Shown here piece after piece: positions 11,233 to 44,223 of a stretch of DNA of 64,000 bases (positions are counted from its first letter, which is position 1; the number at the start of each line of letters is the position of its first letter). The stretch lies in the NCBI RefSeq assembly GCF_044324875.1, contig NZ_CP172185.1. One strand, written 5' to 3'. The DNA comes from Escherichia coli. GTDB lineage: Bacteria; Pseudomonadota; Gammaproteobacteria; Enterobacterales; Enterobacteriaceae. A program made the position numbers and the translations under genes. The notes under the pieces were generated by a model. It did no database searches. It saw nothing but the letters and a program-made list of their open reading frames with translations, and was not told the DNA's origin.

Positions 11233-14081
11233 TGACATTCTCGCTTTTCAGACGCCGTGAGGAAAAAGGTACAGCAGAGACCAGGGAACGACCGGAAGCA
11301 GAAGCGGGGGCATCTTCATCGGCCTTTGTTCCGCCCTGTCCTCCGGGGGCACAGCCCCTGCGACGTCCGGGACAGATGACCCGTGATGCTGAGGCGGCGG
11401 TTTATCATGCCGGTCCGTCGGTTATTGATTTTCTGCCATGGGTGGAATATCTGGATGAGGAGCAGTGTCTGCTGCTTGACGACGGGGTGTCGGTGGGAGC
11501 GGTCTATTCGGTGACGCCGGCCGCAACGGAAGGGCGTACGGAAGAGCGCCTGGCGCAAATCAGGGACATGGTGGAGGATGCCCTGCAGGACAGTTTTGAT
11601 GAGTACGACACGCATCCCTGGGTGGTGCAGTTCTACTGTCAGGATGAAAATGATGTGGATGCGTACCTGGACTATCTGAAGGGGTATGTGAAACCCCACG
11701 CGCAGGGAACGGCATTCACGGAGGCCTGGCTGGGTGAAATGGCCCGCCATCTCAGGGGGATTGCCCGTCCTGAGGGACTGTTTACGGACACCCTGGTCAC
11801 CGGTCAGCCCTGGCGGGGACAGCAGCGACGAACCCGGATGGTGGTTTACCGTCGTATCGGGAAGAACAATAACGATCCGATGTCGCCGGTGGCGATGCTG
11901 AACCAGGTCTGCGACCGCGTGGTGTCCGCACTGGGTGGAGCCGGTATCCGCTGTACCCGGATGAACGGTCAGCAGGTGCACAGCTGGCTGCTGCGGTTAT
12001 TTAATCCGGCACCGGACTGGATTGCCCGTGAAGAGCTGTACCGGATGGCCTCACGGGTTGATCCGCGTGAGCGTGGTGATGATGTGATGCCGGTGATGAC
12101 GGATTTTGCCGAGAGCCTGTGGTTTAACCCGCCGTATTCCGATCCGGAGAACGGGGTGTGGTGGCTGGACGCCATGCCGCACTGTGCCGTGGTGGTGGAA
12201 AAGCTGCGTACGCCGCCGGAGCCGGGGACCATCACCGGAGAGATGCCCCGTGGGGAAAAAACGGTGAATGCGCTGATGGACACCTTTCCGGAGGGAACGG
12301 TGATGTGCATGACCATCGTGGTGCAGCCCCAGGACACCCTGGAGGACCGTTTCACCCGGCTGTCGAAAAATGCGGTGGGTGAGAACACGGAATCCATCCG
12401 GGCGCGTCAGGACGTGAAGGTGGTGAAGGAGCTGCTGGGGAACCGGCACAAGCTGTACCGGGCAGGGCTCACCTTTCTTCTGCGGGCAGAGGATATGGAC
12501 AGCCTGAAACGCCGGCGTGTGGAGCTGACCACGGTGCTTCTGGGGGCTGGTCTGCAGCCGGTGCGGCCTGAGTTTGACGTGGGGCCGCTGAACAGCTGGC
12601 TGCGGGCGCTGCCGATGTGTTTTGATCCGGATACGGACAAAAAGCAGTGGTACACGCGTCTGATGTGGGTACAGCACATGGCAGGATTGTTGCCGGTGAC
12701 CGGCCGGGATACGGGGACCGGACATCCGGGGTTCAGTTTTTTTAACCGGGGTGGTGATGTGCTGACTTTCGATCCGCTGAACAAGCTGGACCGTACCCAG
12801 AACGCGCATCTGCTGCTGTTCGGACCAACGGGGGCCGGTAAATCGGCCACGCTGTGTGCTTCACTGTCGCAGGTGATGGCAGTACACCGTCCCCGCCTGT
12901 TCATTGCCGAAGCGGGGAACTCGTTTGGTCTGCTGGCCGATTATTTTGAGAGTCTCGGGCTGTCGGTGAACAAAATCAGCGTCAGACCGGGAACCGGTGT
13001 GACCCTGCCGCCGTTTGCAGATGCGCATAAACTGGTTGAGGAAGGGCAGGATCTGCAGTGCGTGGATGAGCACTCACTGCCTGATATTGAGGATGAAGCC
13101 GGGGATGAAGGGGAGGATAAACGAGACATTCTGGGCGAGATGGAAATCTCAGCCAGGATGATGATCACCGGGGGGGACCCGAAAGAAGAGGCCGCGCTGA
13201 AGCGTGCGGACAGGGCGATGATCCGCGAGGCGCTGCTGATGGCCACACACCGGACATACCGTGAGGGGCGGCAGATGCTGCCGGAGGATTTGCAGTCCGC
13301 CCTGTGGGAGATCTCCCGTGACAGCAGCCGTAACGATGTGCGCAATGCAAAGGCGGCGGAGATGGCGGAGTCTCTGGGGATGTTCACCCAGAAGGGGAGT
13401 TTTGAGGCGGAGTTGTTCAACCGTGAGGGCGAACTGTGGCCGGAAGCGGATGTGACGCTGATTGACCTGGGGCATCTGGCCCGTGAGGGGTATGAGGCAC
13501 AGATGGCGCTGACCATGGTGTCGATGACCAACATGATCAATAACATTGCCGAACGTGATCAGTATCTGGGGCGTGACATCGTGTTTGCGGTGGATGAGGC
13601 GCATATCGTGACGGTCAATCCGCTGCTTTCGCCGTACATGACGAAGGTTGTGAAGATGTGGCGTAAGCTGGGAGCGTGGCTGTGGCTGGCGACACAGAAC
13701 CTGAAGGATTATCCGGATGTGTCGGAGAAGATGCTGAATATGGCGGAATGGTGGGTGTGTCTGACGATGCCACCGGAGGAAGTGAACAACATTGCACGCT
13801 TTAAATCACTGACGGAAGAGCAGAAAGCGGTGCTGATGTCGGCGAGTAAGCTGTCCGGCTGTTATACCGAAGGCGTGGTGCTGGCGAAACAGATTGAGGC
13901 GCTGTTTCGTGCGGTGCCGCCAAGTCTCTATCTGGCGCTGGGCATGACGGAGAAAGAAGAGAAGGCTGAGCGGCGCATGCTGATGAAGGAACATAACTGC
14001 AGCGAACTGGAGGCGGCGTTCCATGTGGCGCGTAAGCTGGACAGGCTGCGTGGTCTGTCGGCCATGGAGGCGGATGTATGA
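11232..14081 (+). CDS. traC: conjugative transfer ATPase (VirB4/TraC-like), ICE class
   Basis: 949 aa; Walker A GPTGAGKS; Walker B-like FAVDEAH. Confidence 0.8.
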   Translation: MTFSLFRRREEKGTAETRERPEAEAGASSSAFVPPCPPGAQPLRRPGQMTRDAEAAVYHAGPSVIDFLPWVEYLDEEQCLLLDDGVSVGAVYSVTPAATEGRTEERLAQIRDMVEDALQDSFDEYDTHPWVVQFYCQDENDVDAYLDYLKGYVKPHAQGTAFTEAWLGEMARHLRGIARPEGLFTDTLVTGQPWRGQQRRTRMVVYRRIGKNNNDPMSPVAMLNQVCDRVVSALGGAGIRCTRMNGQQVHSWLLRLFNPAPDWIAREELYRMASRVDPRERGDDVMPVMTDFAESLWFNPPYSDPENGVWWLDAMPHCAVVVEKLRTPPEPGTITGEMPRGEKTVNALMDTFPEGTVMCMTIVVQPQDTLEDRFTRLSKNAVGENTESIRARQDVKVVKELLGNRHKLYRAGLTFLLRAEDMDSLKRRRVELTTVLLGAGLQPVRPEFDVGPLNSWLRALPMCFDPDTDKKQWYTRLMWVQHMAGLLPVTGRDTGTGHPGFSFFNRGGDVLTFDPLNKLDRTQNAHLLLFGPTGAGKSATLCASLSQVMAVHRPRLFIAEAGNSFGLLADYFESLGLSVNKISVRPGTGVTLPPFADAHKLVEEGQDLQCVDEHSLPDIEDEAGDEGEDKRDILGEMEISARMMITGGDPKEEAALKRADRAMIREALLMATHRTYREGRQMLPEDLQSALWEISRDSSRNDVRNAKAAEMAESLGMFTQKGSFEAELFNREGELWPEADVTLIDLGHLAREGYEAQMALTMVSMTNMINNIAERDQYLGRDIVFAVDEAHIVTVNPLLSPYMTKVVKMWRKLGAWLWLATQNLKDYPDVSEKMLNMAEWWVCLTMPPEEVNNIARFKSLTEEQKAVLMSASKLSGCYTEGVVLAKQIEALFRAVPPSLYLALGMTEKEEKAERRMLMKEHNCSELEAAFHVARKLDRLRGLSAMEADV

Positions 14082-14464
14082 TGTGTCTGAAATACCCGAA
14101 ACCGGAGGTGATGACAGAGGTCATGCCCGGGGGCAGCGTGTTTTTTCTGCCGCCGCAGGGAAAACCGGGTGTTGCGGATCTGGCGCAACCGCATCTGCAG
14201 CGCCTGCGGTCACAGCTTGAACGCAGGCTGGGTACGCTGCATCGTGTGGTGTGTCAGCCCCAGCGGGTGGGGCAGAGCAGCAGTGTGGCCGTGACAGCAG
14301 AAGGGGCGTGTGGCGAGGTGCATCTTCTGCTGACAGTAGGGGGGCATGAGAGCTGGCCCTCTGAAGAGGAATACCGGCATCCGCGCTGGTATATCCAGGT
14401 GGTGGATGCGGCCGATCTGTTCTACCTGCTGCTCTGGCTGTGTGATGGCGGGCAGGAAGCGTGA
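14078..14464 (+). CDS. ICE hypothetical protein; last 62 bp duplicated downstream of iha
   Basis: start overlaps traC stop; C-terminus VVDAADLFYLLLWLCDGGQEA repeated at 16806-16870. Confidence 0.4.
   Translation: MMCLKYPKPEVMTEVMPGGSVFFLPPQGKPGVADLAQPHLQRLRSQLERRLGTLHRVVCQPQRVGQSSSVAVTAEGACGEVHLLLTVGGHESWPSEEEYRHPRWYIQVVDAADLFYLLLWLCDGGQEA
14399..14460. repeat. direct repeat copy 1 (62 bp) flanking iha insertion
   Basis: 59/62 nt identical to 16806-16867. Confidence 0.8.
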
Positions 14465-14553
14465 AGTAAAAATACTTCCACTGGCAAACTGCTCCAGTGG
14501 AAGTGTATGTAATGTTTTGTTGTTTATTTTAATTTCTTGTAAAACACAAACAC

Positions 14554-14570
14554 TAATTATTCTCATTATT
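14554..14570 (+). promoter_or_regulatory. candidate Fur box upstream of iha
   Basis: TAATTATTCTCATTATT matches about 13/17 of the core of consensus GATAATGATAATCATTATC; 50 bp upstream of ATG. Confidence 0.35.
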
Positions 14571-14619
14571 GTTTAGATTTGTGTATCTTTCGCCCGATTA
14601 ATATAATCGGAGAGAAGAT

Positions 14620-16707
14620 ATGCGAATAACCACTCTGGCTTCAGTAGCCATCCCTTGTCTCGGATTTTCAGTCAGCAGCATGGCTGCGGAAGATGTGATG
14701 ATAGTCACCGCATCCGGCTATGAAAAAAAATTAACCAGTGCAGCTGCGAGTGTTTCGGTGATCAGTCAGGAGGACTTGCGATCCAGCCAGTATCATGATC
14801 TTGGGGAGGCACTGAGATCCGTAGAGGGGGTGGATGTTGAAAGCGGTACGGGTAAAACCGGTGGACTGGAAATCAGCATCCGTGGAATGCCTGCCAGTTA
14901 TACGCTGATACTGATTGATGGTGTCCGTCAGGGCGGGAGCAGAGACGTAACCCCGAACGGTTTTTCTGCCATGAACACGGGGTTTATGCCACCTCTGGCC
15001 GCCATCGAACGTATTGAGATTATCAGGGGCCCCATGTCCACTCTGTACGGCTCTGATGCCATGGGGGGCGTGGTGAATATCATCACCAAAAAGAATGCAG
15101 ACAAATGGCATTCTTCAGTTAATGCCGGGCTGAACCTGCAGGAAAGTAACAAATGGGGGAACAGCAGCCAGTTTAATTTCTGGAGCAGCGGCCCCCTGGT
15201 GGATAATTCTCTCAGCCTGCAGGTACGTGGCAGCACGCAGCAGCGACAGGGCTCATCGGTCACATCACTGAGCGGCACCTCAGCCACGCGCATCCCTTAT
15301 CCAACAGAGTCACAGAATTATAATGCAGGTGCTCGTCTTGACTGGAAAGCAACGGACAAGGATATGTTCTGGCTTGATATGGATACTGCACGACAGCGTT
15401 ATGATAACCGGGACGGCCAGCTGGGCAGCCTTACTGGCGGTTATGATCGTACCCTGCGCTATGAACGTAATAAAATTTCGGCAGGTTATGATCATGCATT
15501 CACCTTCGGAACCTGGAAGTCATCCCTGAACTGGAATGAGACGGAAAATAAAGGCCGTCAGCTTGTACGCAGCGTACTGAAGCGTGATAAATGGGGACTT
15601 GCCGGCCAGCCGAGGGAGCTTAAGGAGTCGAATTTTATCCTGAATTCCTTACTGCTTGCACCTGTGGGTGAATCTCACCTGGTTACTGTCGGTGGTGAGT
15701 ACCAGAACTCATCCATGAAAGACGGGGTTGTTCTCACCAGTACAGGCGAAACCTTCCGGCAGAAAAGCTGGTCGGCATTTGTTGAGGATGAGTGGCATAT
15801 CACGGATGCGGTTGCACTGACTGTGGGCAGTCGTTATGAACATCATGAGGTGTTCGGAGGACACCTCAGTCCGCGGGCATATATGGTCTGGGATGTGGCT
15901 GATGAGTGGACGCTGAAAGGTGGGGTGACCACGGGATATAAGGCACCCGGCATGGGGCAGTTACATAAGGGGATCAGCGGTGTGTCCGGTCAGGGGCGTA
16001 CGAATCTTCTCGGTAACCCGGACCTGAAGCCGGAGGAGAGTGTCAGCTATGAAGCGGGCGTGTATTACGATAATCATGCCGGTCTGAACGCCAATATCAC
16101 GGGCTTTATGACAGAGTTCTCCAACAAGATCGTATCTTATTCTATTGATGATAATACCCGCAGCTATACAAACAGCGGAAAGGCCAGGACTCAGGGTGTG
16201 GAGTTTGCCGGCACACTGCCTCTGTGGTCAGAGGATGTGACGCTGTCTCTGAATTATACCTGGACGCAGAGTGAACAACGGGATGGGGATAATAAAGGTG
16301 CACCACTGAGTTACACCCCTGAGCATATGGTGAATGCGAAACTGAACTGGCAGATTACTGAAGATGTGTCATCATGGCTGGGTGCCCGTTACCGCGGGAA
16401 AACGCCACGTTTCACCCAGAATTATTCGTCACTCTCAGCTGTACAGAAGAAAGTGTATGATGAGAAAGGTGAATATCTGAAAGCCTGGACGGTACTGGAT
16501 GCGGGCATGTCGTGGAAAGTGACGGATGCACTGACGCTGAATGCAGCGGTGAATAATGTGCTTAACAAGGATTACAGTGACGTAAGTCTGTATCGTGCCG
16601 GCAGTGGTACGCTTTATGCGGGTGATTACTTCCAGACGGGGGCATCGACAACAGGTTATGTGATACCGGAGAGAAATTACTGGATGTCGCTGAGCTATCA
16701 GTTCTGA
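14620..16707 (+). CDS. iha: TonB-dependent outer-membrane siderophore receptor/adhesin, Iha/IrgA-like
   Basis: 695 aa; signal peptide; TonB box EDVMIVTAS; plug motif IEIIRGPMSTLYGSDAMGGVVNIITKK; C-terminal YQF; N-terminus matches recalled Iha sequence. Confidence 0.75.
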   Translation: MRITTLASVAIPCLGFSVSSMAAEDVMIVTASGYEKKLTSAAASVSVISQEDLRSSQYHDLGEALRSVEGVDVESGTGKTGGLEISIRGMPASYTLILIDGVRQGGSRDVTPNGFSAMNTGFMPPLAAIERIEIIRGPMSTLYGSDAMGGVVNIITKKNADKWHSSVNAGLNLQESNKWGNSSQFNFWSSGPLVDNSLSLQVRGSTQQRQGSSVTSLSGTSATRIPYPTESQNYNAGARLDWKATDKDMFWLDMDTARQRYDNRDGQLGSLTGGYDRTLRYERNKISAGYDHAFTFGTWKSSLNWNETENKGRQLVRSVLKRDKWGLAGQPRELKESNFILNSLLLAPVGESHLVTVGGEYQNSSMKDGVVLTSTGETFRQKSWSAFVEDEWHITDAVALTVGSRYEHHEVFGGHLSPRAYMVWDVADEWTLKGGVTTGYKAPGMGQLHKGISGVSGQGRTNLLGNPDLKPEESVSYEAGVYYDNHAGLNANITGFMTEFSNKIVSYSIDDNTRSYTNSGKARTQGVEFAGTLPLWSEDVTLSLNYTWTQSEQRDGDNKGAPLSYTPEHMVNAKLNWQITEDVSSWLGARYRGKTPRFTQNYSSLSAVQKKVYDEKGEYLKAWTVLDAGMSWKVTDALTLNAAVNNVLNKDYSDVSLYRAGSGTLYAGDYFQTGASTTGYVIPERNYWMSLSYQF

Positions 16708-16805
16708 TAACAACAAAACCGATATAACGCACAGTAAAATGTAAACATGCTGCTGCTGTCACTGCAGGCAGTGGCAGCAGCGTATAACCGCAGATGTTTG
16801 TCCAT

Positions 16806-16867
16806 GTGGTGGATGCGGTCGATCTGTTCTGTCTGCTGCTCTGGCTGTGTGATGGCGGGCAGGAAGC
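16806..16867. repeat. direct repeat copy 2 (62 bp) flanking iha insertion
   Basis: re-encodes VVDAVDLFCLLLWLCDGGQEA plus stop. Confidence 0.8.
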
Positions 16868-17144
16868 CTGAAAAAACTGCCGCTACTGGCAACTGTGTCG
16901 TGGTGGCATGTTACTGGCAGGTGGTTTACGGAGTATGGGCCCAATTCTGGCCTGCCGGAACATGCCCTTATAACCTTTAACACAGCGGTTACATAAAAAA
17001 CAATGTCTTTTGTGCACAGCAGTATTGTGGCTGAAAGTGAAATAAAAGCGCGATATTATACTGCTTCGCGTCCGGTTGTCATTATCATGGATAGTGCGTT
17101 ATGTTTATAAAGGCGTGACGGACGCTTAATTCTCACGCAACGCA

Positions 17145-17166
17145 CCCCTCTTAAATTTTCAGTTTC
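17145..17166 (+). promoter_or_regulatory. conserved upstream motif shared with 6321-6341
   Basis: CCCCTCTTAAATTTTCAGTTTC vs CCCTTAAAAATTTTCAGTTTT, each 80-100 bp upstream of an ICE operon start. Confidence 0.3.
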
Positions 17167-17244
17167 CGGTTTTGAATTTATTGCTGCTATTGGTGCTGCT
17201 TATGCGCACGCTGTAAGTCGGATATTGTCTGACGGAGGCGTACA

Positions 17245-17640
17245 ATGTACCGGATTTTCTGTTCCCTGTTTTTCCTGCCGCTGGCAGCGTCTGCCGGCAC
17301 AACAATTTATACCGATTCTCAGCACCTCCCCGTTAATCCTCCCGATGGTGTCAGGGTGGTTCTGCTGGATGCACCGGAGCAGCTTCAGACCCGCTTTTTT
17401 GGCACGTTGCCTGCTGATGCGGATAAGGCTGAAGCGGTGGTCAGGGCACGTATGCAGTCTCCCGAATGGCAGATGATGCAGGCGGAACTGGCTGCTCATT
17501 ACCGCGATGTGGCACATGCCTGGTCGCTGGGCGTGAAGAAATATCCTGCCGTGGTGTTTGATGACAGTGAGGTGGTTTACGGCATCACGGATGTGGTGGT
17601 GGCCGGGAAACTCCGTACTGAGGGAGGAGTTCAGCCATGA
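17245..17640 (+). CDS. ICE exported protein, function unknown
   Basis: signal peptide; GGAGG RBS. Confidence 0.45.
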   Translation: MYRIFCSLFFLPLAASAGTTIYTDSQHLPVNPPDGVRVVLLDAPEQLQTRFFGTLPADADKAEAVVRARMQSPEWQMMQAELAAHYRDVAHAWSLGVKKYPAVVFDDSEVVYGITDVVVAGKLRTEGGVQP

Positions 17641-18611
17641 TGACCCTGAAAAGTCGTCTGCGTGCCTGCGTACTGTTACTGAGTGTGGCATCACTGCCTC
17701 TGGCGTCTGCGTCACTGAATACTGCCAGCATTATCGCCAGTGCGGCGGCACCGGACTGTATCAGCTGGCGTGTCAGCGGGATTTGTTACTGGCTTTACTG
17801 CAGCGCGTCTGGCTGTACGGTCAGAACTTCCGTGAAGGTGACACATTTCATCCCGGAAGTGGTTATTTCCACCTATACGGCACCGGGTGGTAATCCCTGG
17901 AAAGAGATGTCGCTGGTCAGCCGGACCGCAGGTGGCCCGGAGAATGCCATCACTGACGGCCTGTCCGGGCTGAGTGCCGGCGGGGGAAATCCGGCGGATA
18001 TGAAAATACAGGGGAAGCGCCGTTCAGCCATTCGTTTCAAATACGCAGATGCGCTGGGTCATCCGGCCACACAGCTTATCGGCGGGATGGTACCCGGATT
18101 CAGCTGTGATTCACCGGTGACACCGGCCATGCCCTATTTCCTCAGTACCCTGGACAGCATCGTCTGGCGAACGGGATTACCTGAATCCCTGTATCCAGAG
18201 GCACAGGTTCCCGGCAAACGCGAGATTGGCACCCAGGCCGATAAAAACATGTGGGGGAGCGTTTATCCCCGGAGTGGTTTTGTGATGCAGACCGATGATG
18301 ACCGGGCAGCGGCGGTGGTGGCCCAGCGGGTGGCCGACATTATCACGCGGACGGGGGAGCCGCATGTCTACAGGGAGGTTAAGGGCGTGAAACGTGACGG
18401 CTACTGGCCCCCGGAGGCGGTGGAGGAAAACACCGGCACCCGAAATCACAAATGGCAGCGACTGACGCCGTCAGTGTCGCGTTCCTGTGCCGTTTTCCCG
18501 GATGGTGAACATCAGGCAGCGGAGAACGGTAATGCCGCCTTTTCACTGTGGCAGCCCTATAGCTGCTGTAAAAAGCGCGGGCAGCGATTTCTTGGCAGTA
18601 CGAATTTTTAA
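17637..18611 (+). CDS. TraU-like conjugal transfer protein
   Basis: signal peptide; Cys-rich periplasmic protein about 320 aa at expected operon position. Confidence 0.5.
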   Translation: MMTLKSRLRACVLLLSVASLPLASASLNTASIIASAAAPDCISWRVSGICYWLYCSASGCTVRTSVKVTHFIPEVVISTYTAPGGNPWKEMSLVSRTAGGPENAITDGLSGLSAGGGNPADMKIQGKRRSAIRFKYADALGHPATQLIGGMVPGFSCDSPVTPAMPYFLSTLDSIVWRTGLPESLYPEAQVPGKREIGTQADKNMWGSVYPRSGFVMQTDDDRAAAVVAQRVADIITRTGEPHVYREVKGVKRDGYWPPEAVEENTGTRNHKWQRLTPSVSRSCAVFPDGEHQAAENGNAAFSLWQPYSCCKKRGQRFLGSTNF

Positions 18612-27378: not shown

Positions 27379-28121
27379 TGGGGGAGAGGGAGCGAACCAG
27401 GCAGTTTTATCAGGAATGTGATTCCGGCGAACCCGCTCGCCGCAGTCCGGCGACCGAACGTCAGTGAGTAAGCGGACGAGGAAGCGGAATGTCACCGTTC
27501 TTTCATAATGCACGAACGCTGTGTGGTTACATGGGGAAAGGATGAATGTCACCATTCTGTATCTGTTTCTGAAAAACAGTTCCGCTTGTTACCCTGTAAT
27601 TGCCGACTGGCGTTAGCATACAGAGGCGGTATTATCCCCTGTGATATCAGGGGTTATTTTGTTTTGCTCTGTAAGACCTGGCCAGCTATTATGCTGGCCT
27701 TTTTGTGGTTTATTGTTCGCAGTCCAGCATTGCAAATAATTTTCGTTTCTGTTCCTTCACATACTCAACATCAACAGTACAATCCAGATAACTTAACTCA
27801 TCTTCTGTCCAGGCATTGATGGATTCTTTTATTCGGTGTGTCACATCAGGTGTGAGTATGTCGCGCATTTCTCAATGGTATCCCGGCTTATTTCTCCTCG
27901 TGGAGATTCAAGCAGAGGAATTACGGCCTGATCTCCCGGAGGGAGTATAAGACGTAATTCATATTTAAGCGTTTCGTTGAGTAAACTACAGAAAGCACTG
28001 TATTTCTCTTTCCGGGTACTGTTCATCGTTTTATTCCTTCTAATTACTGTGCATGGGGTAAGATTAAAGTGTTTTGCAAAAAATGTACAAGTTGTTTTTA
28101 TCCTGATTTAATTTGATGTCA

Positions 28122-28802
28122 TCACTTTTCTTTTGTGTCAGTGGGTACTGCATTGTTTATTAGCCACGGCAATTGTTGATTATCCTGTATTTTTCGGATG
28201 TAGTTATCAATAATATCTTTTGTTTCATCAATATTATTATAAAAAGATTCAAGTGTGCATATAAAATCATCATTTAATGTAGGTAGCAGGATTATGTTTT
28301 TTACTGTGAACCGGATATGACGATTACTCAGTGTTTTTAAATAAAGTTTCTTTCCAATAACAGGATTTACATTGAAAATATTGTAACAGATTTCCACTGT
28401 GTTTTCTGAAGGTGCGTATAATACGTATACCGGATATTTTTTATGAAGTTTTATCAAGCAACTTATAAAATCTAAGTAATTTGTTTGTTTTGCTTTTTCT
28501 CGCATCTTATTTACGTGCTGCGAAAAGAAATATGCTTTTGTAAATATAAAAAGAAAAATAAACGCAGTGTTTAACAGAAATGTGATGACAATTGTTGTAA
28601 ATAACCATTTGCCTGAACCTGTATTAAAAATATGGGATGAAAGATACCCACCTGTCAGCAACAAAAATATAAATAATAATGACTGCATTTTTTCCTGGTT
28701 GTTTATTGATGATTTCAGACACAGAAATATAACAACACATGAAAAGGTCCAGAAAAATATAACAGCAAAATCCATATTATCACCTTTTGTCTGACAGTTC
28801 AT
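28122..28802 (-). CDS. polytopic membrane protein, hypothetical
   Basis: 226 aa, several hydrophobic helices, strongly AT-rich. Confidence 0.4.
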   Translation of the reverse strand: MNCQTKGDNMDFAVIFFWTFSCVVIFLCLKSSINNQEKMQSLLFIFLLLTGGYLSSHIFNTGSGKWLFTTIVITFLLNTAFIFLFIFTKAYFFSQHVNKMREKAKQTNYLDFISCLIKLHKKYPVYVLYAPSENTVEICYNIFNVNPVIGKKLYLKTLSNRHIRFTVKNIILLPTLNDDFICTLESFYNNIDETKDIIDNYIRKIQDNQQLPWLINNAVPTDTKEK

Positions 28803-28944
28803 TTGTTGATGCTATCACGATATTCGCGATGCGGTAAATATATCAATATGTTGGTTTATTTGTGTAATACATTATTTCCCATACGCCATAAATCAGTCTG
28901 TTGACGATAGCTTTTTTCTTTTGTTATTCTGTACCCGCTTTAAC

Positions 28945-29921: not shown

Positions 29922-30839
29922 ATGTCCCGTAAATCGTCACGTTCCAAAGTTGAAGTCTTTCGCAAGTCATTCATCTCACTTGCCCGTGATTGTGGTGGCA
30001 GCTACGCAACAACCGCTGACAGAATGCGAATTGCCAGATACTTTTTGAATTATTTGCAAGTAAACGGTATCAAACTTCGTCAGACGGGCAGTATTAAGAC
30101 GAGGCATATTTCTGGTTATCTTCTCAGCAGGAAAGAGCAGGGGATCTCTCACCGCACAATTCAGAATGAACGGGCAGTTATGCGCGCAATTCTAGAGAAA
30201 GATGGTCGCCTTAAAATAGCGGATCCGTCCAATCCTTTATTGAGCAATGAAGCTCTTGGACTCAGGGATACATGCCGTGATGGTAAAAAGATACCACTCT
30301 CACAGGATGAGTTTAATAAAGCCTTCAGTAAGGTTGAAAAAAATAATCCCGGTGTTGCTGCAGTAATGCAAATTTCTTATGTTCTTGGACTGAGGACAAA
30401 AGAAGCTGTTCAGTCTTGTAAATCAGTTAACTCGTGGCTACGTGAACTTGATTCAGGGCATGATTCTCTTCTCGTTGTTTTTGGGACGAAAGGTGGAAGG
30501 CCCAGAGATACAACGATCATTAATCGTGATGCAGTGAAACATGCGCTCATTTATGCAAAAAACATTATGGATAAACAGAATGGTAAACTTATCGATTGCC
30601 CCAATATTAAACAGGCTATAAACGTATATCGTTACCATGTAAGAAAAGCTGGTTTATCTGGAGTGAAGGCACCACATAGTATGCGTTATCATTTTTCGCA
30701 GGAAGCAAGGCAGTTTTATCGAAAAAGTGGATATGGAGATAAAGAAATTTACGCAAGGGTTTCCATGGACCTTGGTCATGGTGACGGAAGAGGGCGTTAT
30801 GTAAAACAGGTCTACTTTAAAGGCGATGATGAGAGCTGA
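29922..30839 (+). CDS. tyrosine-recombinase-like protein (integrase family)
   Basis: C-terminal HSMRYHFS...LGHGDGRGRY resembles Box II HxLRH...LGH...Y; AGGGGG RBS. Confidence 0.45.
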   Translation: MSRKSSRSKVEVFRKSFISLARDCGGSYATTADRMRIARYFLNYLQVNGIKLRQTGSIKTRHISGYLLSRKEQGISHRTIQNERAVMRAILEKDGRLKIADPSNPLLSNEALGLRDTCRDGKKIPLSQDEFNKAFSKVEKNNPGVAAVMQISYVLGLRTKEAVQSCKSVNSWLRELDSGHDSLLVVFGTKGGRPRDTTIINRDAVKHALIYAKNIMDKQNGKLIDCPNIKQAINVYRYHVRKAGLSGVKAPHSMRYHFSQEARQFYRKSGYGDKEIYARVSMDLGHGDGRGRYVKQVYFKGDDES

Positions 30840-39268: not shown

Positions 39269-42184
39269 TTACTGAGTCAGTTTTTTTATCAGGTCGTGAA
39301 TTTTATCACCTGAAAACTGGGTCATGAAAGTTATCTTTATGGATTTACTGATTTGTTCGAAGAGTTTCTGTGCATGTTTTATTTTATCGCGTTCTTCATG
39401 TCTGAGTTCACGTTTGCCATCAACATTTTTGGTTTCAATAATAAGGTTCAGATAATCACCCTTTGACGTGTTTACAACATAAGCGAAGTCAGGGGAGTAA
39501 GTGTATCCTCCCGCTACAGGAATTTTTATTGAATTTTTGGGGATCTTTGTGAAGACAATGACTGACCTGACCTCACCCTCTGTCATATTGAGTTTTTCAA
39601 GTTCTGAATCATAAAATACTTCTTCAAAAAGATAAGAGTCCAGTGGAGGGCTTGTATTATCCTGTAAAACGCCAAGATCACTTGACAATACATCAGCAAG
39701 ATAACCGCCGTCTGCATTGGTGAATTTCGTGGGATGGACAGTTCCTGATATTACATTATACCCAAGGCTGAATTTACTGAACGAGTTATTAAGCAAATAC
39801 TTGCTGAAACCAGATTTAATTTTTCTGATTGTCTGAATGTTAAGGTATTCAGTTATATTTATGATGTCTTTTATATCACAAAAAACCTTATGCATGGTGT
39901 CATGTTTGACAAAAATAGTCTGTGATAATTTATCAAGGAATTCACGATAGCTCATTGTGTTTATTTTGTGAAAATTATCCTCATCAACACTGAGAATGCT
40001 TTTCGACATTGCCGTATCATTATGGATATAAATTCTTTCAATACGAGTATGAGCACCGGATTTGGTAAATCTGTCTGCTTCTTCCAGCATAAACGCTCTG
40101 AAAAGGGATAAAAACTCACGTTCACTTTTTATTTTATACTCAATCACGACCTTTTGATTGATCAAGTCCCATAGTTCTTTCAGCTCACTGAACTTACCAA
40201 CACGCATTTTAGTGCGTCTTTTTCCATCAGAGGCTTTTTTTATTTTGCCTGGTTTCACTCCTGCAGGAAATGCTGCCGGATATCTGGCTTTTAAGCGGCT
40301 ATAGGCATCTGAATCTTTGAAGTTATCATTATCATCAATGATCTCATCATCAAAAATTTCATTCAAGAGTGTTCTGGAGGAAAGCTCCGGATATTGAGAC
40401 AGGATTTTATCCTTAAGTTCCTGAGTAAACTTACCTGGAACAGTCTCTTTGAAAGAACTATCGTTGATCTCTTTGACAAGAGAATCGACAAAATCTTTTT
40501 CTGTAAAATCAACATAATAGTTGAGGGTAAAATTGCGGTCTTTCACACGACACATGTATTCATTCACCGGAAGACGTAAACCACGCCCTACTTCCTGAAG
40601 TTTAGATGTGGTGCTACCGCTCGAACGGAGCTTACAAATCTGAAAGACATTTGGGTTATCCCATCCCTCACGCAACGTCCATTTAGAGAAAATGAAACGG
40701 CGAGGATTTTCTAAAGACAATAGAAGCTCTTTATCATGAAGGATTTCGTTGATTTCCTGCTCAATTTTATCATCTTTATCACTATTATCTTTTGAAAAAT
40801 AACCACCATGAACAGAAGATATATCCTTAACAGTTTTTTCAAGGTAGTTTCTGTAAAACTCATCTTTTTCTGTTTTTAACAGTTCATTTGCTTCTGCCAA
40901 AACGTATTCTTCGAACTTAGTTTTCAGGCTTCCTGCAATATCATTACCATCACGATAGCCTTCAATGTCATCAATGAAGAAAAGAGTAAGAGGTTTTATG
41001 CGTGGCCTTTGTGTCAGATACTCTTTTTCTAACTTAAAGTGTTCTTTGACAGCTTTACGTATCATGTTATCAGCAAGTGTCTGATCGTAAGAATAGGGGT
41101 TTATCGAACTACCAATTTTTAGCTCAATACCATTACTCAACACTGCTGTATTCTTATTTAAAGCATCAAGAGTTAAATCATGGATCGCACTATGCGTCTT
41201 AGATAGTGATTCACCTTTGGCTAACTTAAAAATTTTTTTATTATTATTTTCGTTCAGTTCAAATGTAGCTTCTTTTCCGTCAGATTTGACCAACTTGAGG
41301 TTGGCATTACCATCACCAACTATATCCTCAATGTATGCATCAATACCTTTAACAAGATCTTCATTGAAGGCATCTACGGCTGTAAGACGATAAACTAAGT
41401 TCTTATATCCTTCACTAAAGGTTGCACCATAGCGGATGATATATTGGGCATTAAATTTTTGAATATGTTCCCATGTCTTTTTACCAGTAGGAAATTTATG
41501 AGGCTCATCAATGATAATGAATGGTTTTATCGCACTAAGTGCAGAAAATGGGGTATCAAACTGATTATTAAGCAAGCCAACATCATAAGTGTCAGTTAAA
41601 GACTTAGAGTTAATCATCCCTGAATTGATCACAAGAATGTGTATATATTTCTTATTGAAATTACTTGCTTCAACAAAATCATGGATAGCTTGAGGCATAT
41701 ACGATTTTGTATTTTTACCCGAACGTTTCTGACTTTCAACAACGTAAGTCTTTAGTTCACGCTCGTAATCATCTCGAAAGTGTTCTTTTATAGCATCGCT
41801 TTTTAAAAAGTTAACGGTTCCGGCTTTGATCGATAGGGTAGGAACAATGATGATAAACTTGTTAATACCAAATGATTTGTTCAGGTCAAAAATTGTTTTG
41901 GTGTAAGTATAAGTTTTACCTGTACCTGTCTCCATAGAAACATCAATTACGTTGCTTTTAGCATCGTAATTATCTTTTGAGTGCTCAATACCATTGAACT
42001 CCTGAACATTTTTTATGTTGTTGTAGTATTGTTGTTCAGATAGATTCAGTTCTGGATTAGCTAACAGGCGAATTGCAACATGATCCGTCTGATGAGGTAT
42101 GGCGGATACAAAGACATTCATTACCGAATCAACGCCAGCCTTTTGATGAGGTAAATTTTTTTCGAATGTGAACCCTTTAGACAT
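39269..42184 (-). CDS. res: Type III restriction enzyme, Res subunit
   Basis: 971 aa; Walker A METGTGKT; DEAH-like IIIDEPH; immediately downstream of mod. Confidence 0.8.
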   Translation of the reverse strand: MSKGFTFEKNLPHQKAGVDSVMNVFVSAIPHQTDHVAIRLLANPELNLSEQQYYNNIKNVQEFNGIEHSKDNYDAKSNVIDVSMETGTGKTYTYTKTIFDLNKSFGINKFIIIVPTLSIKAGTVNFLKSDAIKEHFRDDYERELKTYVVESQKRSGKNTKSYMPQAIHDFVEASNFNKKYIHILVINSGMINSKSLTDTYDVGLLNNQFDTPFSALSAIKPFIIIDEPHKFPTGKKTWEHIQKFNAQYIIRYGATFSEGYKNLVYRLTAVDAFNEDLVKGIDAYIEDIVGDGNANLKLVKSDGKEATFELNENNNKKIFKLAKGESLSKTHSAIHDLTLDALNKNTAVLSNGIELKIGSSINPYSYDQTLADNMIRKAVKEHFKLEKEYLTQRPRIKPLTLFFIDDIEGYRDGNDIAGSLKTKFEEYVLAEANELLKTEKDEFYRNYLEKTVKDISSVHGGYFSKDNSDKDDKIEQEINEILHDKELLLSLENPRRFIFSKWTLREGWDNPNVFQICKLRSSGSTTSKLQEVGRGLRLPVNEYMCRVKDRNFTLNYYVDFTEKDFVDSLVKEINDSSFKETVPGKFTQELKDKILSQYPELSSRTLLNEIFDDEIIDDNDNFKDSDAYSRLKARYPAAFPAGVKPGKIKKASDGKRRTKMRVGKFSELKELWDLINQKVVIEYKIKSEREFLSLFRAFMLEEADRFTKSGAHTRIERIYIHNDTAMSKSILSVDEDNFHKINTMSYREFLDKLSQTIFVKHDTMHKVFCDIKDIINITEYLNIQTIRKIKSGFSKYLLNNSFSKFSLGYNVISGTVHPTKFTNADGGYLADVLSSDLGVLQDNTSPPLDSYLFEEVFYDSELEKLNMTEGEVRSVIVFTKIPKNSIKIPVAGGYTYSPDFAYVVNTSKGDYLNLIIETKNVDGKRELRHEERDKIKHAQKLFEQISKSIKITFMTQFSGDKIHDLIKKLTQ

Positions 42185-42186
42185 GA

Positions 42187-44223
42187 TTAGTTTCTTACCA
42201 CCAAATCTAAATCAATAGATTTTTTATTAGCATAACTTTTTAGTGCTTCATTGAGTTCCATCTGTTTCGCACTTTCGAAGTTGCTGCCATAAAATACAAC
42301 TTTGTTAGGGGCAAAGTCTTTGTCTGCATCCAGCTTTTGAAGTAAAGCTTTCAAAGCCTCACTTGTGAAATTAGGCGCAATTAGATATAGCCGACCATCG
42401 CACAAGTGTGCTTTGTAGCCATTAAGGTCAATATCTTCAATTGGTGTTGTTAGCAAGCTGCCATCATACACGCACCATGTCGTCAATAGAGTGTCATACT
42501 GCTCTGGTGTCAATACAGCATCGTCAAAGAAACTAAGATTAGAAAGCGTAAGTTCAGACTCATCTTTCACTCGAAAATTATGAACTGTTTCAAATATTTT
42601 AAATCCCAAATCTCCATTATAATTAGGATTATCTTTTTTCAGCTTTTTTCCTGCCTTAATAATTCTGTCTTTTGTTATATTGAAGATGGATTTATACCCT
42701 TCTTTATAGGCTTGTTTCTTTTTATCTGTTTCTTCATCTAATTGAACACAGATGAAGTTTCTTTTCCTGCCGTCTTCAATATTTAACTCCAGAATACCAT
42801 GAGCTGTAGTTCCAGAGCCAGCAAAAAAGTCAAGATAAATGTCTTTATCTTCGGTTTTTACTGAACCAAATAGTGTTTTTATTAAACTTGTTGGCTTCGG
42901 GTAGGAGAAATATCCTTTCCCACCAAAAAGATTTTCAACCTCAACACCACCATCACTTTTAGTTGAAATAATTGATCTTAGTAAAAACTCTTCAACTTCA
43001 TCTAAAAATTTAACCGAACTGGGTTGGGTGTTTTCTGTACTGGCAAACCAAATTCCACCACAAATAACGCTACCATCATGTAGTTTTTTGATATCTGCAT
43101 ACTTTCCATCTATTCTTTTTGCAATATGATTAAAAGTGCCTTCTTTCCAACGCCAGCCTCTGTCTGGGATTTTGACAGGGTTATTAGTCAAAGGGTGCAA
43201 TACTTCATACGTGGGTCCAAATGAATCTGCATTAGGCCAGCTCATATTAATTTTACCCCATGGCCTATAATCTTCGTTCAAACAGTTGTAAAGAGTAATT
43301 CCACGATCATATCCGTTGGAGCTGTAGAATTTTTTGAGTTGCTGCTCTGCTTTATCTAATGGCACCTTCTCCTTTTTTAACTTTTCAATAAACTGATATA
43401 CATCATCAATACCATCTTTCCGCATTAAAAATTCTTTACTTATTTCGTTATTCTTCGCATAAGCAAGGATGTACTCATGGATATTACCAATACCCTTATC
43501 ATTTTTAGGGATACGTTTATTCCATACAATATTTTCTATGAAATTTGCTTCGCCAAAAATTTCATCACAAATAGTTTTAAGTTGATTTAATTCATTTTCG
43601 TCAATCGAAATAAATATCACACCATCTTCACGTAGAAGCTCACGAGCAATATATAAACGAGGATAAATGAACGTTAACCATGCGCTATGGCTGCTTGAAC
43701 CATTCGTGGTAAATTCAAGTATACGTTTAGCCTCATCAAGATCGATACCTGCCAGATCAGAAAGCTGTTCAGGTGTAAACTTGCGATCATCGTTATAGGC
43801 GAATCCATCCTTACCTGTATTGTATGGTGGATCAATGTAAATCATCTTCACCTTTTCAGAGTAAGCATTAACCATATGCTTCAATACTTCGAGGTTATCC
43901 CCTTTGATTAACAGATTCTGACTGTTTTTGTTCTCTTCACGTTGGTTATGGTCTTTATCTTCGGAGAGTAATGTCTTCGGCGGCAAGTTAGCTAACAGAC
44001 GGGCATAGGATTTACCAAGCCAGTTCAGGCTGTATGATTCTTTGGAGAGTTCAACATCCGATGATTTGACGATTTCAAGCAATTTTTCCTGAATGAACGC
44101 TCCATTTTTATCAAAACACTGTGGAAAGTTAGCCTTTAAAATCGCAAGCTGTTTACTGTTTGTGGTTTCAGTTTCAGAGAAAAGAGTTTCTTTTTTCAGT
44201 TGAAATTGGGGTTGTGTATTCAT
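42187..44223 (-). CDS. mod: Type III restriction-modification methyltransferase, Mod subunit
   Basis: 678 aa; DPPY motif (IYIDPPYNTG); AdoMet motif FFAGSGTT; GGAGG RBS. Confidence 0.8.
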   Translation of the reverse strand: MNTQPQFQLKKETLFSETETTNSKQLAILKANFPQCFDKNGAFIQEKLLEIVKSSDVELSKESYSLNWLGKSYARLLANLPPKTLLSEDKDHNQREENKNSQNLLIKGDNLEVLKHMVNAYSEKVKMIYIDPPYNTGKDGFAYNDDRKFTPEQLSDLAGIDLDEAKRILEFTTNGSSSHSAWLTFIYPRLYIARELLREDGVIFISIDENELNQLKTICDEIFGEANFIENIVWNKRIPKNDKGIGNIHEYILAYAKNNEISKEFLMRKDGIDDVYQFIEKLKKEKVPLDKAEQQLKKFYSSNGYDRGITLYNCLNEDYRPWGKINMSWPNADSFGPTYEVLHPLTNNPVKIPDRGWRWKEGTFNHIAKRIDGKYADIKKLHDGSVICGGIWFASTENTQPSSVKFLDEVEEFLLRSIISTKSDGGVEVENLFGGKGYFSYPKPTSLIKTLFGSVKTEDKDIYLDFFAGSGTTAHGILELNIEDGRKRNFICVQLDEETDKKKQAYKEGYKSIFNITKDRIIKAGKKLKKDNPNYNGDLGFKIFETVHNFRVKDESELTLSNLSFFDDAVLTPEQYDTLLTTWCVYDGSLLTTPIEDIDLNGYKAHLCDGRLYLIAPNFTSEALKALLQKLDADKDFAPNKVVFYGSNFESAKQMELNEALKSYANKKSIDLDLVVRN

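Follow-up and report, generated by a model that had tools for sequence, protein, structure and literature searches.

A Predicted Fur Operator in the Promoter of an ICE-Borne iha Allele of Escherichia coli

Introduction

The window analysed is a continuous stretch of 64,000 nucleotides (64 kb) of Escherichia coli DNA, to which all positions refer. It contains a gene for the siderophore receptor/adhesin Iha embedded in an integrative conjugative element (ICE), and the question raised by this locus is whether the DNA directly upstream of the gene contains an operator for the iron-dependent repressor Fur. A sequence-only reading had pointed to a Fur-box-like sequence in front of iha and taken it to be consistent with iron-repressed expression of an inserted receptor gene.

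Iron control of iha has been described for other alleles. According to the statement in PMC6313751, which cites Rashid et al. 2006, iron represses iha by way of Fur, and the passage on regulation in PMC2671405 mentions a Fur box in the iha promoter as well as a SNP "upstream of the Fur-box" that alters regulation between two strains. Transcription of iha is increased in iron-limited DMEM and almost shut off when FeCl2 is supplied or LB is used (PMC3064760), and induction of the gene has been described in urine as well as in vivo (PMC2736566). A full-text literature search for an iha promoter or Fur footprint returned nothing beyond the cited statements, the work of Rashid et al. 2006 being known via PMC6313751 and PMC2671405, and iha is absent from the main text of the preprint on the Fur pan-regulon by ChIP-exo (CFT073, Sakai; bioRxiv 10.1101/2020.05.21.109694).

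The iha Gene and Its Insertion into the ICE

The gene downstream of the site is located at 14620-16707 on the + strand and encodes a TonB-dependent catecholate siderophore receptor/adhesin of 695 amino acids. It had been named iha from the letters of the window, and RefSeq annotation and the NCBIfam model agree with that name: identical DNA in RefSeq is annotated as "bifunctional siderophore receptor/adhesin Iha", the identical protein is WP_024210527.1 (Iha), and the equivalog NF010012 matches residues 1-695 of 695 with 1539 bits versus a cut-off of 924. For the models of the next families, CfrA, CirA, and IreA, the window Iha is below the cut-offs. Its amino acid identity to a sister allele is 95%; for the alleles of pO113 and EDL933 the value is 90.5-90.9%. 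The Shine-Dalgarno sequence GGAGAG (14609-14614, + strand), 5 nt before the ATG, is invariant in all alleles. Directly before it, and overlapping it, lies the palindrome CCGATTA-ATA-TAATCGG (14594-14610), of which a 5-bp version, CCGAT/ATCGG, is found in all alleles, those of O157/UPEC having a G-U variant of it. An RNA element as the explanation of the conserved iha leader was considered and discarded; Rfam returned a chance-level match alone (E = 0.51), and an RNA hairpin before the Shine-Dalgarno sequence was no more stable than shuffled sequences (z = -1.2).

The module that carries iha is located between the genes for a conjugative ATPase and a small ORF on one side and the TIGR03757-TraG genes on the other. 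The corresponding empty site is found in an ICE without iha in strain SF-088, whose locus L018 aligns to window positions 14000-14491 and 16801-17706 with 97.6-97.8% identity. As the alignment stops at 14491 and resumes at 16801, the insert in the ICE backbone covers approximately 14492-16800 (+ strand), and the receptor gene is indeed inserted, as had been supposed. The GC content is 0.58-0.61 in the ICE backbone versus 0.52-0.53 in the iha region, and iha is foreign to the surrounding ICE. The insert is flanked by a direct duplication of about 95 bp of ICE sequence, the left copy of which is found at 14389-14491 (+ strand) and the right copy at 16796-16895; a repeat search pairs 14389-14465 with 16796-16872 at 91%, and positions 3495-3589 of L018 align to both copies. 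The duplicated DNA consists of the 3' end of the ICE gene that precedes the insert and of DNA adjoining this end, and it is too long for a target duplication of the transposase type.

The sister allele of E. coli 702/18 (L022, NZ_CP074701.1, 2262500-2270500) is likewise located beside TIGR03757/TIGR03756 genes, which are pseudogenes there, and IS elements flank that locus. The association of iha with the ICE thus seems to be older than the element in the window and to have decayed elsewhere. By blastn, the window and 702/18 have positions 14506-16779 (+ strand) in common, at 93.5% identity, which comprise the promoter with the Fur box, the gene, and 72 bp of 3' flank. Since the sister allele shares this module, the Fur box would travel on a compact promoter-gene unit. 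With regard to the carrier element, the window is identical to AR_0089 (NZ_CP032265.1) over the 301 bases compared (14400-14700), while further downstream, at about 27-31 kb, the two differ in the arrangement of their ORFs. No tRNA was detected in the window by ARAGORN, and the ICE of AR_0089 ends at a tRNA-Phe approximately 43 kb after iha. From the differences in layout and tRNA it follows that the window derives from an element related to the ICE of AR_0089, albeit with different cargo or length.

Two further repeats border the module. An inverted repeat at 14467-14511, with 18-nt arms of 83% complementarity and a 9-nt loop, spans the left junction and is followed by T-rich DNA; it was not called by the terminator scan and may serve as a terminator of, or an insulator against, transcription that enters from the ICE genes on its upstream side. 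A GC-rich hairpin at 16749-16781 (GCTGCTGC..GCAGCAGC) is located 42 nt after the iha stop, inside the shared module, with no T-tract following.

The Fur Box Upstream of iha

Direct reading of the 64-kb window gives TAATTATTCTCATTATT at 14554-14570, which is exactly the sequence that had been reported from there. When it is aligned with positions 3-19 of the classical Fur consensus GATAATGATAATCATTATC, in the form in which PMC3788343 quotes it, 13 of 17 positions are identical, and 49 nt separate position 14570 from the iha ATG at 14620; the earlier estimates of about 13 of 17 matches and about 50 bp are thereby reproduced. The classical 19-bp Fur box is located at 14552-14570 and reads ACTAATTATTCTCATTATT on the + strand and AATAATGAGAATAATTAGT on the - strand, with 13/19 and 14/19 matches to the consensus, respectively. 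Common to the matches on both strands is the best register, a 7-1-7 inverted repeat CACTAAT-T-ATTCTCA at 14551-14565. With this repeat inside the 19-mer, the coordinates given by the sequence-only reading are right to 2-3 bases. The box is situated in an AT-rich gap of 155 bp (14465-14619; GC 0.30) bounded by a small ICE gene (14078-14464) and the 695-amino acid ORF at 14620-16707. Judged from these features together with the scores and the conservation described below, the segment 14545-14571, with its core at 14551-14565 and the classical box at 14552-14570, is very probably the Fur operator of the iha promoter.

An AT-rich leader may come to resemble an AT-rich consensus by chance, in which case iron control of iha, if any, would be exerted via another site or indirectly. 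Some observations are in line with such a fortuitous resemblance. Matches of at least 12/19 to the consensus occur at 101 positions of the window and matches of at least 13/19 at 16, albeit matches of at least 14/19 at just 4 positions in 64 kb, 14552-14570 among them; furthermore, the left half-site is poor, with CACTAAT agreeing with TGATAAT at 4 of 7 positions. As both consensus and region are AT-rich, an independent Fur model was built. Twelve intergenic regions of E. coli K-12 MG1655 upstream of textbook Fur targets (fepA-fes, fepD-entS, fepB-entC, fhuA, cirA, fecI, tonB, exbB, fiu, fhuE, fhuF, and feoA) were subjected to a de novo motif search by expectation maximisation, which converged on AAATGAGAATGATTATCAT, that is, the Fur motif. 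The resulting matrix rests on 12 sites, from promoters that were picked from prior knowledge. Scored leave-one-out, the 12 genuine K-12 sites attain 8.3-25.4 bits (median 20.9), and all matches of at least 14 bits in 97 kb of K-12 DNA fall into Fur-regulated intergenic regions, including the fecA leader, which was not part of the training set.

A matrix scan had been named as a check of the site. When it was run over both strands of the 64 kb, the best match of the whole window, ranking first among approximately 128,000 positions, was TAATGAGAATAATTAGTGT at 14550-14568 on the - strand, 52-70 bp upstream of the iha ATG, with 19.7-20.1 bits. Dinucleotide shuffles of the 155-bp intergenic region attained this score in 5 of 5000 cases and a consensus match of 14/19 in 67 of 5000. 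Rescored against an AT-rich background, 14550-14568 retains 15.1 bits. In a separate comparison, 34 real tiles of 155 bp from AT-rich parts of the window gave at most 13.4 bits. By matrix score, consensus match, rank, and shuffle frequency, the quality of the motif is on a par with that of established Fur sites.

The next-best matches are found at 27730-27748 (17.6 bits), 42619-42637 (15.8), 28904-28922 (15.4), 30676-30694 (15.0), and 41237-41255 (14.1). These five come from AT-rich DNA of the window (GC 0.36-0.44), and four are contained in long ORFs; the match at 28904-28922 is located between ORFs and precedes, by some 100 bp, a - strand ORF (28122-28802) that starts at 28802. As there is no obvious iron gene behind any of them, they are probably chance matches, and their occurrence would speak for chance in front of iha, too. 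Against it stand the first rank of the site and its rarity among composition-matched shuffles, the recurrence of a strong site at the same location in all intact alleles and in three other genera (see below), and the published Fur dependence of iha. A fortuitous origin of the site is, on balance, highly improbable.

Around the main site, weaker overlapping sub-sites extend the operator to 14545-14571. They follow a 6-bp phase, with matrix starts at 14542 (+ strand), 14548 (+ strand), and 14556 (- strand) and scores of 10.9, 14.3, and 9.9 bits, respectively. Within 14465-14619 nothing else is found above 14.3 bits, and the scoring sub-sites all overlap the main site. By analogy with the published Fur-box models to which PMC3788343 refers for the binding of two or more dimers, such a phased array would be the arrangement expected for at least two Fur dimers on overlapping 7-1-7 motifs.

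Conservation of the Site

Among 5426 complete E. coli genomes, 1585 have promoters of the iha type, and 23 have the allele of the window. Other iha subtypes are 78-86% identical to the window over the promoter and the 5' end of the gene, with the homology beginning at approximately 14506-14514. Besides the window, five intact alleles were aligned, namely, the sister allele of 702/18, a plasmid allele, and those of RM9245, O157:H7, and a UPEC-type strain. In all five, the best upstream Fur match is found at the homologous place, with 16.2-19.5 bits; the right half of the site, ATTCTCATTAT, is nearly invariant, and the left half varies. The O157:H7 and UPEC-type promoters of the set differ from each other only at -109 and -41, which flank the site at -72 to -54. 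The majority fraction among the E. coli alleles is 0.92 in the site versus 0.86 in the flanks. Given these values, conservation within E. coli alone is a weak argument, and orthologues from other genera were used instead.

Distant orthologues of Iha were retrieved by tblastn from a plasmid collection. They are encoded on plasmids of Citrobacter freundii (74% amino acid identity), Salmonella enterica (60%), and Enterobacter soli (56%), where the best Fur match of the respective 3-kb locus scores 19.4, 16.7, and 18.4 bits. In all three genera this match is located 73-92 bp upstream of the ATG, in upstream DNA that is otherwise very different. The site is thus conserved upstream of orthologous genes in five E. 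coli alleles and three other genera.

A seventh E. coli locus, that of strain S14 (L007, NZ_CP107114.1), is interrupted. An ISEc23 element (IS66 family) has taken the place of all upstream DNA from about -57 onward, the promoter region with the Fur box included, and the matrix scan found no Fur match upstream of this iha gene. For S14 it is predicted that Fur control has been lost or that the gene is either silent or driven by the IS element.

The Candidate Promoter and Its Overlap with the Site

The only sigma-70-like combination on the + strand that is found in all six intact iha promoter alleles is TTCTCA-18 nt-TAT(C/T)(T/G)T. In the window it would consist of a candidate -35 hexamer TTCTCA at 14560-14565, inside the Fur box, and a candidate -10 hexamer TATCTT at 14584-14589, with a predicted start at about 14596 (both + strand). 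With 8 of 12 matches this candidate is weak, and a stricter promoter scan returned no promoter on the + strand and two matches on the - strand only. Other elements were tried and rejected. The perfect TATAAT at 14602-14607 is located 13 nt from the ATG, too close for a Shine-Dalgarno sequence to be accommodated; it reads CATGAT in four alleles of the O157/UPEC/LAA/pO113 type and is shared with the sister allele (L002) alone. For a -35 element TTGTAA at 14537-14542 there is no usable -10 element at a spacing of 16-19 nt. With the candidate -35 hexamer inside the Fur box, Fe2+-Fur would occlude the iha promoter, and this predicted overlap fits the classical occlusion design.

The same overlap invites the reading that the block is conserved mainly as a core promoter (-35 or UP element), or as the site of another protein such as H-NS or a factor of the short-chain fatty acid (SCFA) response, with Fur acting mainly at neighbouring sequence. 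It would account for the coincidence of the invariant right half with the candidate -35 hexamer and for a conservation in E. coli that does not single out the Fur core, and effects of SCFA on iha expression are mentioned in PMC6313751, which cites Herold 2009. Yet the intergenic region 14465-14619 offers no separate position above 14.3 bits to which Fur could be assigned, since the scoring sub-sites overlap the site itself, and what the distant orthologues share is the Fur motif and not the TTCTCA hexamer alone. Moreover, the roles of promoter and operator are compatible, their overlap being the normal design of Fur control. It is therefore very unlikely that Fur is a minor user of this block, and the assignment as a Fur operator is retained.

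Fur might also bind at the site for another purpose, namely, to halt transcripts that read through from the transfer genes of the ICE on the upstream side (a roadblock) or to control an antisense transcript. The orientation of iha, co-directional inside a transfer-gene cluster, would suit a roadblock. An antisense transcript could start from the - strand promoter-like sequence TACACA-18-AATAAT at 14585-14556, which emerged from the promoter scan and overlaps the Fur site, and in other alleles RefSeq lists small ORFs that run antisense across the promoter. A roadblock would, however, find the inverted repeat at 14467-14511 already placed between the upstream gene and the promoter, and the site accompanies iha also without the ICE, on plasmids and in O-islands; the antisense ORFs are short, and one of them is a pseudogene. 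Either role as the main function of the site is extremely improbable, and repression of iha itself is the reading followed below. As for these ORFs, the RefSeq entries of several genomes (L003-L006) are short - strand coding sequences for a "hypothetical protein" that cover the promoter and the 5' end of iha, and in the window a - strand ORF of 118 amino acids (14210-14566) overlaps the Fur box. They look like over-annotation of AT-rich promoter DNA.

Proposed Mechanism and Implications

The following scenario is proposed for the locus. When iron is plentiful, Fur dimers loaded with Fe2+ would bind to the AT-rich inverted repeat, probably as two dimers on overlapping 7-1-7 motifs, a stoichiometry suggested by the phasing of the sub-sites. 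Since the operator would overlap the -35 region of the iha promoter, RNA polymerase would be excluded. When iron becomes scarce, Fur would lose its metal and leave the DNA, and Iha would be made. Occupancy of the operator of the window allele by Fur is an inference from the motif, and the dependence on iron and Fur is taken over from the literature on homologous alleles. The iron-repressed expression that the sequence-only reading had proposed thus finds support in the operator-like score, in the conservation of the site, and in the published work on those alleles.

The operator would belong to a compact module, composed of a promoter segment of 114 bp, the gene, and approximately 70 bp of 3' flank, which presumably moves as a unit. 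As the module moves with its operator, iha would stay iron-regulated wherever it lands, in the present case inside an ICE. Given the capture of the module in a co-directional transfer cluster and the lack of a T-tract after the hairpin at 16749-16781, iron starvation could conceivably drive read-through from the derepressed iha promoter into the downstream transfer genes and so couple transfer functions of the ICE to iron limitation of the host, a speculation with very little likelihood of being correct. The decayed but like arrangement at the sister allele suggests an old, possibly selected association.

A rare ICE-borne iha allele would accordingly carry its own predicted iron switch, so that the receptor/adhesin should be expressed in iron-poor niches such as urine and the gut mucosa, whatever its carrier. 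This is of help for annotation and for predicting when virulence-associated cargo is expressed; the knowledge of Fur and Iha as such is left unchanged.

Comparison with Known Systems

Iha, the "IrgA homologue adhesin", was named after the iron-regulated irgA of Vibrio cholerae (PMC6024878). The product of irgA is a homologous TonB-dependent receptor, and the name of the gene records its iron regulation. There is a Fur box in the V. cholerae irgA promoter, and irgA also needs the divergently transcribed LysR-type activator IrgB. Unlike irgA, the iha gene of the window is not flanked by a gene of the IrgB type; the gene next to it on the upstream side belongs to the ICE and has the same orientation.

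The operators of cirA, fepA, fiu, fhuA, fhuE, and fecI in E. coli K-12 resemble the site in the window in that the same motif, with 15-25 bits, is located in the intergenic region upstream of the gene for a TonB-dependent receptor, and overlapping sub-sites in a 6-bp phase are found also at fhuF, fepB-entC, and fecI of K-12. They differ from it in that they belong to the core genome and to experimentally mapped promoters, whereas the site in the window is located on horizontally mobile DNA in front of a predicted promoter.

The Fur box of iha in O157:H7 and UPEC (Rashid, Tarr & Moseley 2006, Microb Pathog 41:207, as represented in the papers citing it) belongs to the same gene family and is presumably found at the same position. 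The homologous O157:H7/UPEC sequence, ATATAAATTATTCTCATTA, which scores 18.0 bits, occupies -72 to -54 relative to the ATG; its right half is identical to that of the window. The site in the window is, judged by this alignment, very probably the homologue of the published iha Fur box, and the mechanism to be expected is the same in both cases, namely, repression by Fe2+-Fur. Differences are seen in the promoter, which is 78-86% identical to those of the studied alleles, in the left half-site (CACTAAT in the window versus TATAAAT), in the score (20.1 versus 18.0 bits), and in the setting, which is an ICE for the allele of the window and O-islands/PAIs or plasmids for the studied ones. As control of iha by iron and Fur via a Fur box has already been published, the finding is correct but ordinary; what is new is the rare allele and its ICE context.
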